Positions 24,972-51,727 of a stretch of DNA of 64,000 bases are shown in pieces; the first letter of the stretch is position 1, and each line of letters begins with the position of its first letter. Below the pieces are notes generated by a model that was given only the letters and a program-made list of their open reading frames with translations, was not told the origin of the DNA and ran no database searches. Made by a program: the position numbers and the translations under genes. Origin of the DNA: Promethearchaeati archaeon SRVP18_Atabeyarchaeia-1 (lineage in GTDB: Archaea; Asgardarchaeota; Atabeyarchaeia; Atabeyarchaeales; Atabeyarchaeaceae); NCBI GenBank assembly GCA_037308085.1, contig CP147779.1:1504001-1568000 (forward strand). The letters are read 5' to 3'.

Positions 24972-25226
24972 GGGGCGCTGCGAGGCAGGGCAGGCTGCTC
25001 GTTGAGGTCGATCCCAGGCACACGTCTCTGTCGTGCCCCTACTGTGGATACACAGGTAGGTCGAACCAGGTTGGCTACTCCTACTTCAGGTGCAGGGCAT
25101 GCGGCTTCGAGGCGAACCGTGACCGCTTGGCGAGCCTCAACATCGCCCTCAGGGCGGCCCAAACAAAAGACACATCCAGCACCTACAAGATGGGCCAGTT
25201 TCCTGGGGGGAGCGCCTCCGTCAGTA
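24972..25226 (+). mobile_element. tnpB: IS200/IS605 tnpB 3' fragment (left part)
   Basis: VEVDPRHTSLSCPYCG..FRCRACGFEANRDRLASLNI; continues in frame at 51639 once the island is removed. Confidence 0.85.
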
Positions 25227-25382
25227 CGTGCTGACAATTGCTGTGTGTCAGTAGGCAACCTTCCTTTCTAACTCCTGCAGCTTACTCATGCGCACCCAAT
25301 GGGGGTTGATATGTCTTATTACACTGAGCTCTAAGCACCCATTGCTTCGGATGATTCGCATAAGGTTACTTATCGCATCTTT

Positions 25383-26231
25383 TCATAGTTCCGTGTCCTT
25401 TTCTCGTGATTTGCTCCAAAGGTAGAACCAAGCTCCGGCGTTAAACCTCGCTGCCGGCAGATTTTTGTCTCTTATCTCTTTGTTCATCATGGAGAACGCA
25501 ATCTTCGCTATCCAAGTGTCGATAGGCTGCCCGTATATCTGATCGTCGATCGAGATCTTCGCCTCCAAATCATAAAGCAGTGTTATGTCTCTCAGCAGGA
25601 AGGATGATATTTTTGGTCCAATGGAGACGATGGAATTTAACTGATTGTAAGCTTTCTCGATATCGCCCTCTTCAATCATTCTCTTGCAGTATTTGACAAT
25701 ATTTCTTTCCGGGATCTCAGTAGCAAACGAAAGCAAATTCAAGACCATCAATCTATCCCTTTCCCTTCCAGTGCTGTTTTCCGTACCAGAGCGTCCTTTC
25801 TCCAGTTCTTTGATGATTGGGTTTCCCCTCGCTACTTCTTCTTGGTAGATCTTATGGGCCTTCTTTTTCTTCTTGTGGGTTTTCACGTACTTGTCAAATG
25901 ATGCCATGTCAAGAAATCCTTGCTTCTTCAAACTGTTAATTCTATCTTCGATCTCCGCGTTGATGTTACCGAAGAACCTCTTCAGGATTGCGAAGGTGCT
26001 TGACTCGAACTTTGAAGACAACTCATCCCTTCTTCCTTGCGCAAAGCATCTTCCGCAAAAGAACCTGAATGCGATCCACCAATCATTCAGCAGGCTTCTG
26101 TTGGTCCATCCCTTCCTCTTGATCTCCTCGTCCAAGTTGATCCTCTTGTACTTGTTCCCGTACTCGGCGACCTTGTCGAACCCCATTTTCAAAATGTCCT
26201 CAACTTCGAGAACCGATTTGTCCATATACAC
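25383..26231 (-). CDS. HhH-GPD-like DNA glycosylase/AP lyase
   Basis: HhH SIVSIGPKISSFLLRD (Lys) and QPIDTWI (Asp). Confidence 0.65.
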   Translation of the reverse strand: MYMDKSVLEVEDILKMGFDKVAEYGNKYKRINLDEEIKRKGWTNRSLLNDWWIAFRFFCGRCFAQGRRDELSSKFESSTFAILKRFFGNINAEIEDRINSLKKQGFLDMASFDKYVKTHKKKKKAHKIYQEEVARGNPIIKELEKGRSGTENSTGRERDRLMVLNLLSFATEIPERNIVKYCKRMIEEGDIEKAYNQLNSIVSIGPKISSFLLRDITLLYDLEAKISIDDQIYGQPIDTWIAKIAFSMMNKEIRDKNLPAARFNAGAWFYLWSKSREKDTEL

Positions 26232-26326
26232 ACCTCCAAATAGCCTCGAAACGTCACGCTAACTGTGCATGAACAGTTATGCCGAACACCATTGGGGACT
26301 CTTGGTGAATGTTCGAGTGAGGATCG

Positions 26327-27112
26327 CTAGTATCTGGATCTGAGTTCTATTACTATCCTATTGGATTCCTCAGCATATCTCAAGGCAAGTTGGGAAACCC
26401 TATCTCTGTCGCATTGCGAACCTCTTCGACACGAGTAGAAGGGTTCATAGAATACTCTCGAACCTCTGCAGCACTGCCTAACCTCAGAGTTGGGAATTCT
26501 TAGGATCTGGCTGACTCCACTGTGATGACGTGGCCTTCCGGGATACGTCTCCCCACTTGACCTGGCTAGGAGTTCTTCTATCTCGCTAACCATTAAGAAG
26601 CAGTCAAGGGGTGGTTTGACATTCTCATCTACCATAAGGTAGTATGCGCTTCTCCAATACTGGCGGAACCTCGCGAGCTGGTTTATGTCTCTCTCTCCAA
26701 ATTCGAAGAAATCCTTAGCCCTGTTGCGCTTCGTCTGCACTGCTGTGACTCCCCTAGTGACGCGGCTTACTTCCTTCGAAATGAAAAAGTCAGCTCCTGT
26801 AAGTCTTTCTCCCCGGCCTGGGTGGAATATCCGTTTGCTGACTGTCACCCCACTAGTTTCGAATTTCCAAATTGGCTCCAGCCCTGCATCTCCTTGCAGG
26901 TAATCCTGCCTAGGCACGGTTCCAATCTGAGCCGCTTGTATAATAACTTGCCTGAATATGTGTTGCGACTCATCTGGCATTGCCTTATTAAATGCCGCAA
27001 ACCCAGTAACGAAGTGTTTAATGTCGCTGACAACACCTTCATTATCGCGTTTGAACTCGGATATCTTACGGTCTTCTACATCATGGAAAACGTTCTTTCG
27101 GTCTGCGTCCAA
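26327..27112 (-). CDS. PD-(D/E)XK-like nuclease
   Basis: ERLTGADFF ... AVQTKR (E-D-QxK variant). Confidence 0.6.
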   Translation of the reverse strand: MDADRKNVFHDVEDRKISEFKRDNEGVVSDIKHFVTGFAAFNKAMPDESQHIFRQVIIQAAQIGTVPRQDYLQGDAGLEPIWKFETSGVTVSKRIFHPGRGERLTGADFFISKEVSRVTRGVTAVQTKRNRAKDFFEFGERDINQLARFRQYWRSAYYLMVDENVKPPLDCFLMVSEIEELLARSSGETYPGRPRHHSGVSQILRIPNSEVRQCCRGSRVFYEPFYSCRRGSQCDRDRVSQLALRYAEESNRIVIELRSRY

Positions 27113-49954: not shown

Positions 49955-50257
49955 CACGCCGCCCCCCGCACACAAATTAAAGGGCATTCGCTGTGGTGAA
50001 GAGACCCGAACGTGAATTGAACCAATATCCACTAGTCAATGCCAAGCACTTGAAATGACTTCCCCCCGTAATGCATCGAATCCCTGACCACACTGAGCGA
50101 TAGTGGCACAAACGACCCGCCGAGAATTGATTATGGCGTTGCCTTGCCAAGTTTGTGCCAATCATGTCTGTACCACATTCATTTATGAGTAGCGGAGTAT
50201 AAAACTCTAGCTCTTTCTTCAGATGCAGGGACAATGTAAGACTGCTCTCCCAACATT

Positions 50258-51547
50258 CTATTTCTCTACCTGATTCTCTTCGCTATGTTTGTCTTCCCTA
50301 TGTGTCAGACCGATCACTGTCTTCAACGCCTTCTCCAAATCTTCGATCCTCTTCTCCATGTTCTGAATGGCATAAGCCTGAGTGTCGTTTCTGACTCTGA
50401 GCTCTAATACTTCCTCCTTATCTTCAGACTTGACTGCTACTCCGAGTCTCTTATTCATGCTTTCCAAAGCATTTGTCCTGCCAGCCAGGTCGGAGACTAT
50501 ACCCAGTAGTTTCTGATTCTCTTCTCTGATCTCCGCAACATTATCTTTGAGACCGTTACCGTTGCCATTACTGATCGAAAGATAAGGCTCATACTTTAGG
50601 TATTGTTGTTTGACCTCTTCCGACTGATTCTCCCTGTATGCTTTCCCAAGGCTGCCGATAGCATGACCTAACCAGAATTCTATGATCGAATCATTGCATC
50701 CATTCTCCGCCAATATCTTGGAGAAACTTGATCTGAGTGCATGTGGAGTGACATCACTGATCGGCTCATCGCCTTTGATCAATCCTGATCTCTTCGCAAC
50801 ATCTCTGACCATTACTTCCACTGCGCTCCGACTCAGCGGCTCAAAGACCTGGCCCTTTCGACCGTACTCCTTAAAGAATAATGGATCGCTTTTTCTCAAT
50901 TCAATGCCCTGGGCATTCTTCAGGTCTTCAAGGTATGTTTTCAGCGCTGATACTGCGTCGAAACCCAGATACGTGTTGAACCGTGTGTGGGTCTTCTTGC
51001 GAAGTAGATCAAGTCTCAAAGGATGCTCGCTCTCTTCCAGGCCTCTGGCGACATCTCCGTAGGTCAATCCTGTAAGAGTGGAGACATCGATCCCACTCTG
51101 ATACATCACCAAGATCACGGCCCTGTCCCGAATCGACAAGCAGTGATCAAGCATTTTCCTAACGTCTTTGGGAACGAGTTTTCTGCGCCTGAACTTTATC
51201 TCACTGTCTCCCAGATTCATTCTCACTCTCACGTCAAACGTAGCGTAAAAGCTGCGGATCGCCATCACTGCCGACCTAGACGACTCTTCGGTATGATTCT
51301 TCTTCATGTGATTAAGAAACCCTATCAGTGATATTGACACAACATCTCTTCGCTCTCTAACATCCATTCTCTGATCCTCAATCGCTTCGTCTATGACCTG
51401 TCTGGGAGTCTTCTTGATGTATTCGAGATACTGCCTTAGTCTAAGCAGGTAGTTTCGGCGTGTGCGCTCTTTCGATTGCTTCATTATCCACCTGCTAACA
51501 TAAGCGTCCTTCAGTAGTTGCTCATTTACCCCTGTTTCAACCGTCAA
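50258..51547 (-). CDS. tyrosine recombinase/integrase
   Basis: RDRAVILVMYQSGIDVS, HALR, LGH, KAY; C-terminal coiled coil; ~85 bp from attR. Confidence 0.9.
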   Translation of the reverse strand: MTVETGVNEQLLKDAYVSRWIMKQSKERTRRNYLLRLRQYLEYIKKTPRQVIDEAIEDQRMDVRERRDVVSISLIGFLNHMKKNHTEESSRSAVMAIRSFYATFDVRVRMNLGDSEIKFRRRKLVPKDVRKMLDHCLSIRDRAVILVMYQSGIDVSTLTGLTYGDVARGLEESEHPLRLDLLRKKTHTRFNTYLGFDAVSALKTYLEDLKNAQGIELRKSDPLFFKEYGRKGQVFEPLSRSAVEVMVRDVAKRSGLIKGDEPISDVTPHALRSSFSKILAENGCNDSIIEFWLGHAIGSLGKAYRENQSEEVKQQYLKYEPYLSISNGNGNGLKDNVAEIREENQKLLGIVSDLAGRTNALESMNKRLGVAVKSEDKEEVLELRVRNDTQAYAIQNMEKRIEDLEKALKTVIGLTHREDKHSEENQVEK

Positions 51548-51638
51548 TACTACCTTCCACGCTCCTAAGAACAGCTCATTTCCCTAGGATTATATGGTGC
51601 CTACTCGATATAAGTATTTCTATATATATACGTCAGTA

Positions 51639-51727
51639 GGCGCGTTTGGCAAGGTGAAGGGTTTGAAACGACAGCGTCAAACAACCCCGAGTTGCAAGCC
51701 CACAAGCTCAAGCGGTGGGTAACTGAT
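51639..51727 (+). mobile_element. IS200/IS605 right end (rest of the tnpB 3' end / omegaRNA region)
   Basis: AAGCCCAC-AAGCTCAAGCG-GTGGGT-AACTGAT subterminal hairpin typical of Y1-element right ends. Confidence 0.8.

Follow-up and report, generated by a model that had tools for sequence, protein, structure and literature searches.

The window analysed here is a stretch of 64,000 nucleotides (nt) from the genome of Promethearchaeati archaeon SRVP18_Atabeyarchaeia-1 (contig CP147779.1, positions 1,504,001 to 1,568,000 of the forward strand). It contains a mobile island, referred to as island A, that carries a gene for a tyrosine-recombinase-type integrase next to its right end and lies between the two parts of a split insertion sequence (IS) relic, IS#1, a member of a tnpB-carrying IS family (coordinates in Table 1; positions given without the word genome are those of the window). 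Island A comprises 26,404 bp, with boundaries set by paralog alignment, has a GC content of 46.0% (genome, 49.6%) and is flanked by two copies of the 8-bp direct repeat CGTCAGTA, the cores of its attachment (att) sites attL and attR. We joined positions 24950-25226 to positions 51639-51800 and compared this reconstruction with the whole genome, which is a single 2.81-Mb contig. The rebuilt junction aligned without gaps to three uninterrupted paralogous IS copies of the same genome (87-88% identity over 321-338 nt). It restores the 20-mer GCGCCTCCGTCAGTAGGCGC, a perfect dyad of the form GCGCCT-CCGTCAGT-AGGCGC, of which six intact occurrences exist in the genome, every one of them within the target IS family, and an open reading frame (ORF) that crosses the junction encodes the TnpB C-terminal tail SASVS-RRVWQGEGF..., matching the intact TnpB of 410 amino acids (aa). 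An 8-mer might recur by chance over 26 kb, but a gapless reconstruction of this kind could not be due to chance, and the island boundaries and the empty site are therefore real and rest on far more than the 8-mer repeat.

An earlier note, made from the letters of the window alone, had taken this 8-bp repeat as the island boundary, a perfect dyad restoring the tnpB C-terminal frame as the empty site, and the structure as an island with its integrase adjoining attR and a dyad target site (attB) in a tnpB 3' end or IS right end. Our analysis confirms these points. The same note had offered a second repeat, GTCAGTAGGC (25247-25256, recurring at 51632-51641), as an alternative attL. This repeat is real but was rejected as a junction: it would leave 28 extra bases that the intact copies do not have, and it is a conserved subterminal motif of the inserts.

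The target family and its hairpin

The intact target copy is a solo-tnpB element of the IS200/IS605 type (locus L012). Its 410-aa TnpB has OrfB and TNB domains, CCCAC...GTGGG hairpins lie near both of its ends, terminal inverted repeats are lacking, and it is inserted 3' of a short motif, with TCAC as its left flank. The tnpB ORF ends within 4 nt of the IS right end ...GGGTAACTGA, and the dyad, which encodes SASVSRR, is situated ~100 nt inside this right end. Two intact tnpB genes of the family are present in the genome, together with one that has a stop codon, one full-length copy that is split at the dyad (genome 2541190-2543354), and many relics and miniature derivatives; three Y1 transposase genes are found away from the target copies. 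One of the miniature derivatives (genome 2605488-2605981) stems from a deletion between two AGCGCCTCC repeats, by which the left end and the first 132 tnpB codons were joined straight to the dyad, and has a right end of 104 nt. A 23-mer from the right arm and right end of the family was found at five loci in GTDB species genomes and at two in JGI metagenomes, all of them Atabeyarchaeia-type IS copies, and the dyad is intact in both JGI copies. Apart from the two genomes with broken sites described below, few records contained the IS family, and in all of these the site is intact.

IS#1, the copy that received island A, is an internally deleted relic. In its left part about the first 15 nt of the IS left end are followed directly by the final ~250 nt of tnpB (TNB/zinc-finger, RuvC-III region), whose product is 73% identical at the amino-acid level to the intact TnpB (residues 295-385), and this part ends in the left arm GCGCCT plus the core. 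The right part runs through the right arm GGCGC, the second stem and the terminal CCCAC...GTGGG hairpin to the IS end ...GGGTAACTGA and matches the right end of the copy at genome 2605593-2605490 with 100% identity. IS#1 lacks the left-end hairpin. The tnpB 3' end that the earlier note had recognised left of the island is thus present, but it amounts to no more than the last ~250 nt of the gene, left over in an internally deleted relic that is joined to a piece of a LigD 3'-phosphoesterase gene.

OmegaRNAs, the guide RNAs of TnpB, extend over the tnpB 3' end and the IS right end. In an RNAalifold consensus of nine copies the dyad forms a stem within a structured 3' region and is followed by a second stem and the terminal hairpin, and the dyad including its loop is kept even in the diverged copy c1593, whose neighbouring bases differ. 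The loop GUCAGU is complementary to a terminal ACUGAC in nearly all copies; four of six single changes keep this pairing through G-U wobble and two break it, which is not significant, and a diverged relative at genome 1802973 shows possible covariation of loop and terminal sequence. An Rfam search of the intact IS copy matched no family. Judged by its position and by the structured, conserved 3' region around it, the hairpin probably belongs to the omegaRNA as one of its stem-loops, and its loop would then pair with the IS-terminal ACUGAC. After insertion of the island, attR retains the loop sequence, because of the direct repeat, as well as everything downstream of the loop; the insertion cuts off no more than the left arm and the scaffold upstream of it.

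Integrase, end motifs and repeated use of one nucleotide

The integrase ORF of island A is intact (429 aa) and matches PF00589 with an E value of 2.3e-18 (67 bits, cut-off 27.1, covering positions 4-170 of 172); its match to the XerA structure 5hxy has an E value of 2e-11. The residues K185, H269, R272, H295 and Y304 (Lys, His-x-x-Arg, His and Tyr), which align to catalytic residues of XerA and XerD, are invariant in 16 family members. The start codon lies ~85 bp from the attR core, and an SSV-type (suicidal) integrase with attP inside its own gene was excluded, because the ORF is whole and the core lies upstream, outside the gene. The genome has four PF00589 genes, namely a Xer-like gene, the integrase of the integrated element Yucahu-i and just two of the island A type (100% and 91% identity); ~85 bp separate each of these two from an attR with the same core. 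The nearest homologs in other genomes reach at most 46% identity.

The second of the two genes lies at the right end of island B (genome 1644641-1663351, 18,711 bp), which is also flanked by CGTCAGTA and is inserted at the same nucleotide of a different IS copy. The cargo of island B differs from that of island A and includes TIR, DndB/GmrSD-like, HEPN and Schlafen/AlbA_2 proteins; the integrase module (90%) and one 560-bp segment are all that the two islands have in common. This segment, at 35431-35989 in the window and genome 1654560-1655118, is 92.5% identical between them. The IS flanks of the two islands are 88% (left) and 94% (right) identical and are no closer to each other than IS copies generally are, which argues for independent insertions.

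The two islands are part of a larger set, with about fifteen copies of the transposon besides IS#1 broken or occupied at this spot. Dyad half-sites broken at the same core number eight on the left and eight on the right in this genome, forming five pairs, as against six intact sites. At least four unrelated left-end types and five right-end types meet the dyad at the same nucleotide, so that several independent insertions are needed in any case. Among the occupied copies are two with integrase-less inserts of 909 and 622 bp, each with a single ORF, that are flanked by 11-bp repeats, and occupied miniature IS derivatives at genome 1709 kb and 2213 kb retain both IS ends. The direct repeats (CGTCAGTA, CCTCCGTCAGT and CTCCGTCAGTA) consist in every case of sequence that belongs to the target, and their length ranges from 8 to 11 bp, the signature of att-site identity rather than of target-site duplication. 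In a second genome, Atabeya-2 (CP147780.1), we found three right halves starting at the same core and one intact site; one of these right halves adjoins a copy of the 622-bp element (91% identity over 403 nt); the two loci are not orthologous, and the genes around them are just 73-77% identical. The proposal of the earlier note that the integrase uses a hairpin of a repeated IS as its attB is supported by the 91% homolog at the same nucleotide, by the eight left and eight right half-sites and by the three further ones in Atabeya-2.

The otherwise unrelated ends have short subterminal motifs in common. AGTAG occurs at +22 to +26 from the core in four of five left-end types and CTACT at -25 to -30 in five of seven right-end types, at a background frequency of ~0.0009 per position, which by a rough estimate corresponds to p of ~1e-9 to 1e-10 per side. 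AGTAG also overlaps the right side of the attB core (CGTCAGTAGGCGC). Both motifs are candidate recombinase-binding sites. Because they are common to ends that are unrelated in other respects, they suggest that one recombinase family serves all inserts, the integrase-less ones included. The island ends are not terminal inverted repeats.

Several remnants lie at or near further copies. At genome 2232187-2232324 a 138-nt copy (85.5%) of the left end of island A abuts an IS relic with no integrase nearby, and may be the left end of a third, decayed island within the ~18.5 kb up to the IS copy at 2213 kb. A second relic left half is found 2 kb upstream of the attL of island B (genome 1642278-1644640, the end of which falls in locus L013). 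The segment in between holds a TIR-like ORF together with a PIN/VapC-like toxin pair and resembles what is left of an older element, inserted at an IS relic next to that of island B. Just upstream of the attR core of both islands runs an A+T-rich, TATA-box-like sequence (51615-51640, ..TTTCTATATATATA; genome 1663335-1663360, ..TTTCTCTGTATATA), which together with the retained loop and right end could give rise to a truncated omegaRNA-like transcript. Among the contigs of four metagenome runs compared with island B, one low-depth contig (X2) joins position 641 to 19362 and skips 18,720 bases. Its shorter side measures only 29 nt, and in intact paralogs (e.g. at genome 1949 kb) the identity extends over 30 bases or more to the left and to the right of the core; the contig is ambiguous, and we did not count it as evidence for excision. 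Loose contig ends at the island B junctions clearly derive from other IS copies and from Atabeya-2.

Cargo and surroundings of island A

The identifiable cargo of island A is, by its protein domains, mostly of defence type (Table 1), and several large ORFs matched no family. The OLD-family nuclease matched AriA, Old and GajA in PADLOC with E values of about 1e-27 to 1e-29. A truncated paralog of the C5 methylase (194 aa) is encoded at 36877-37461, and the two paralogous methylase regions (36648-37674 and 48902-49932) have 69% nucleotide identity. We found no DDE transposase among the island ORFs scanned and no Y1 gene in islands A and B.

The LigD 3'-phosphoesterase gene around the island is in three pieces (24785-24971, 51727-51783 and 53340-53507), split by two unrelated tnpB elements inserted 16 codons apart. 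One of these is IS#1; the other, IS#2, lies outside the island and encodes a TnpB of 413 aa (52095-53336) that is 29% identical to the TnpB of the IS#1 family. An intact ortholog of the LigD gene exists in the congeneric genome G001 (contig C72, locus L032).

Table 1. Features of island A and its surroundings in the window, and uninterrupted or occupied copies of the target site elsewhere in the genome
Feature	Position	Strand	Basis
LigD 3'-phosphoesterase 5' fragment, cut after ...IEQPLH by IS#1	24785-24971	+	Pfam LigD_N positions 1-46 of 107
Left part of IS#1 (internally deleted relic)	24972-25226	+	Pfam Cas12f1-like_TNB; paralog alignment
attL core CGTCAGTA, direct-repeat copy 1	25219-25226	+	junction reconstruction
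Island A	25227-51630		paralog alignment
Subterminal motif GTCAGTAGGC (AGTAG at +24), left (P') side, candidate recombinase-binding site	25247-25256	+	
OLD-family ATPase-TOPRIM nuclease (GajA/AriA/Old-like)	27732-29720	+	Pfam AAA_15, AAA_21, OLD-like_TOPRIM
HEPN-domain protein	31967-32851	+	Pfam HEPN
STAND NTPase (nSTAND3), 975 aa	38024-40951	-	Pfam nSTAND3, E 2e-20
HhH-GPD DNA glycosylase adjoining the methylase	47999-48706	-	Pfam HhH-GPD
C5 cytosine DNA methyltransferase	48845-50032	-	Pfam DNA_methylase, E 9e-59
Tyrosine-recombinase-type integrase with C-terminal coiled-coil-like tail of ~110 aa	50258-51547	-	Pfam Phage_integrase; XerA/XerD structure matches
Subterminal motif GCCTACT (CTACT at -30), right (P) side, inverted relative to 25247-25256	51599-51605	+	
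attR core CGTCAGTA, direct-repeat copy 2	51631-51638	+	junction reconstruction
Right part of IS#1	51639-51726	+	alignment of 10 copies
LigD middle fragment (..ANFEGTIQEG) between IS#1 and IS#2	51727-51783	+	comparison with intact G001 ortholog ..LDFEGVIEEGYGAGE..
IS#2, complete tnpB element outside the island, unrelated to IS#1	51784-53339	+	Pfam OrfB_IS605, Cas12f1-like_TNB; BLASTP
Uninterrupted paralogs	genome 309014-308678, 1949261-1949580, 1959037-1958701		reconstruction alignment
Left junction, left end like island A	genome 2232325		
Left junction, diverged A-like left end	genome 1642481		
Left junctions, left ends like island B	genome 831987, 1709110		
Right junctions	genome 2768500, 714462, 1936886, 1711379		
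909-bp insert at core, 11-bp repeat CCTCCGTCAGT; integrase-less, single ORF (L014)	genome 2542354-2543262		
622-bp insert at core, 11-bp repeat CTCCGTCAGTA; integrase-less, one glyoxalase-like ORF (L015)	genome 2213086-2213707		

Interpretation and comparison with known systems

Integrative defence islands are known in general, and island A is one of them; its target, a hairpin conserved within the right end of TnpB transposons of one family, is unusual and is used repeatedly. We consider it likely, with a probability of about 0.8, that it was placed by conservative site-specific recombination, catalysed by its own integrase within the CGTCAGT(A) spacer of a many-copy attB. The integrase would insert the island into the 20-bp dyad, and strand exchange within the 7-8 bp spacer would leave this spacer duplicated at attL and attR. 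The conserved many-copy site, dead relics and miniatures included, would thereby offer a set of harmless landing pads, used by two integrase-bearing defence islands and by integrase-less single-gene elements that were possibly moved in trans. Exact junctions, one reused nucleotide position, subterminal motifs common to the ends and an intact integrase adjoining attR are observed at these sites; the integrase is probably the catalyst, excision of the island may be possible, and insertion would be expected to disable the guide RNA of full-length copies.

A number of findings weigh against this reading or limit it. Three left and three right half-sites are unpaired in this genome, and in Atabeya-2 none of the three right halves has a left partner; to account for this one has to assume rearrangements or deletions. 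The syntenic loci of the relatives G001 and G002 lack the whole stretch 24972-53339, IS#1 included; neither genome therefore offers an empty site for the island A locus, and both show no more than that this stretch was inserted. Excision as envisaged in the earlier note would form a circle junction, for which a search of IMG/VR with the island A sequence gave no match. The inferred attP of island A has no GCGCCT/AGGCGC arms beside the core. When the integrase family is aligned by profile to three solved Xer proteins, 90% or more of its members have an Asp (Asp154) at the position of the first catalytic Arg (Arg I; R148 in XerD), the family motif being ..SG(I/M)DVSTL.. (e.g. ..SGMDVSTL..) where XerD has ..TGLRVSEL..; three other Arg residues (R140, R142 and R183) are all conserved, one of which might substitute for it, and the chemistry of the enzyme may be atypical. 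In six genomic contexts of integrase homologs at 36-46% identity we found neither tnpB nor an adjoining tRNA gene beside the integrase; one tRNA-Leu gene lies ~1.3 kb upstream in L003. The expectation of the earlier note that homologous islands also end in tnpB 3' ends thus holds for the 91% homolog in island B but not for the more distant ones, so that this single close homolog alone supports the target specificity, and the specificity for the hairpin is confined to a narrow integrase clade. The hairpin is invariant across copies, and covariation accordingly lends no support to the RNA role that the earlier note had assigned to it, while position and the structured, conserved 3' region do. 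Finally, island A broke no working guide RNA at its locus, since its target is a tnpB-less relic; the idea that integration breaks a guide RNA fits the full-length copy at genome 2541190-2543354 instead.

Spread after one or a few initial hairpin insertions, whether by gene conversion, by homologous recombination among the IS copies or by a Y1 TnpA that acts in trans and transposes the IS and its insert as a composite, would also put inserts at one nucleotide of many copies. It is plausible for the small elements: three Y1 transposase genes are present, several occupied copies are miniature derivatives with both IS ends (genome 1709 kb and 2213 kb), and in two genomes the 0.6-kb element is joined to the same IS right end at loci that are not orthologous, an arrangement that integration explains equally well. 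As an account of the whole pattern we regard such spread as unlikely, given that the many unrelated end types at one nucleotide demand several independent insertions anyway and that the flanks of islands A and B are no closer than those of random IS pairs. Composite transposition in particular conflicts with the missing left-end hairpin of IS#1 and with the length of island A, as 26 kb is far above the known size range of single-strand IS200/IS605 transposition.

The Y1 (HUH) transposases of the genome could also have acted on the inserts themselves, if these were IS200/IS605-like single-strand elements placed 3' of ...GTCAGTA, with the repeat as their own right cleavage site. Small dyads or hairpins 10-25 nt inside the right ends (e.g. 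CTACTG-n-CAGTAG) would suit this account, as would the choice of specific short targets that is typical of IS200/IS605 elements. We nevertheless hold it to be very improbable: the identity of 8-11 nt between left flank and right end far exceeds the 4-5 nt cleavage motifs of that family, both large islands have an integrase gene at one end but none for a Y1 transposase, and a single-strand intermediate of 26 kb or 19 kb is implausible. Least credible of all is a repeat that arose by coincidence or as the target-site duplication of a DDE transposon. Recurrence of an 8-mer within 26 kb is fairly common, but all inserts have the same flanking sequence, and joining the flanks gives back a known element exactly; a DDE element is further contradicted by ends that are not terminal inverted repeats and by the lack of a DDE transposase among the scanned island ORFs.

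Integrase-mediated insertion into the hairpin might form part of a wider, two-layer mobile system in Atabeyarchaeia, which we put forward only tentatively. Recombinases without Arg I would use a pseudoknot-forming guide-RNA hairpin as a distributed attB and load defence islands and single-gene cassettes onto IS copies and miniatures; loaded miniatures would be remobilised by the IS transposase, and each insertion would silence a guide RNA.

Integrases are usually seen as aiming at single-copy host genes such as tRNA genes. An attachment site on a repeated, horizontally mobile selfish element would provide many neutral landing sites, and the target itself would move between hosts. One mobile element would also gain a means to disable the guide RNA of another, and such silencing by insertion, if true, would mean a conflict between mobile elements. 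The arrangement helps to explain where defence islands are placed in Asgard genomes, and it offers biochemists a compact natural attB/attP pair together with an unusual recombinase family that has Asp for Arg I. For annotators, 'orphan' omegaRNA-like right ends in Atabeyarchaeia-type genomes may be attR scars.

For Atabeyarchaeum deiterrae group 1, 14 integrated elements including Yucahu-i and 'two defense islands' have been described (Valentin-Alvarado et al., 2024; PMC11529989). In the genome analysed here the motif AATTAACTTAT of Yucahu-i has exactly two occurrences, 10,867 bp apart, which matches that study and identifies the genome as the one of A. deiterrae group 1, an Asgard archaeon; islands A and B are plausibly the two 'defense islands' of the study. 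The main text of the study, which gives no coordinates, and the preprint make no mention of tnpB, IS ends or a hairpin target. Literature searches for integrases that target tnpB or IS right ends returned nothing relevant.

Island A resembles in design the pNOB8-type (non-suicidal) archaeal elements and the bacterial islands that target tRNA or other genes, such as those with dusA-specific integrases. It shares with them an intact recombinase gene adjoining one att site, a short repeat of target sequence, a dyad target in conserved structured sequence, and accessory or defence cargo. Unlike in these elements, the target belongs to another mobile element instead of a host gene and is available in ~20 copies or relics per genome, which makes for many alternative attB sites, and the integrase family has Asp at the canonical Arg I. 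The integrase-less inserts of 0.6-0.9 kb recall the cassettes of integrons, which are likewise recombinase-less single-gene units with a dyad near one end and a hairpin site (attC), and for which a tyrosine recombinase (IntI) is supplied in trans, as proposed here. In contrast to integrons, there is neither an attI nor a cassette array at one platform; the inserts are scattered over IS copies, large islands carry the integrase, and there is no evidence for folded single-strand substrates. Cis-mobilizable elements (CIMEs) and the accretion of integrative and conjugative elements (ICEs), as in the streptococcal ICESt3 family, offer a further parallel: integrase-less elements share att repeats with integrase-bearing relatives, and tandem or nested remnants occur, here in the order of the left half-site at genome 1642 kb, 2 kb of intervening sequence, the left half-site at 1644 kb and island B. 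Our elements differ from that family in being archaeal and in targeting an IS end instead of a single chromosomal gene. Finally, insertion sequences of the IS1111/IS110 and similar families insert into repetitive extragenic palindromic (REP), attC or terminator hairpins and so also use a repeated, hairpin-forming, many-copy target; they do so with DEDD transposases and without cargo, whereas here a tyrosine recombinase is found with islands of 19-26 kb.

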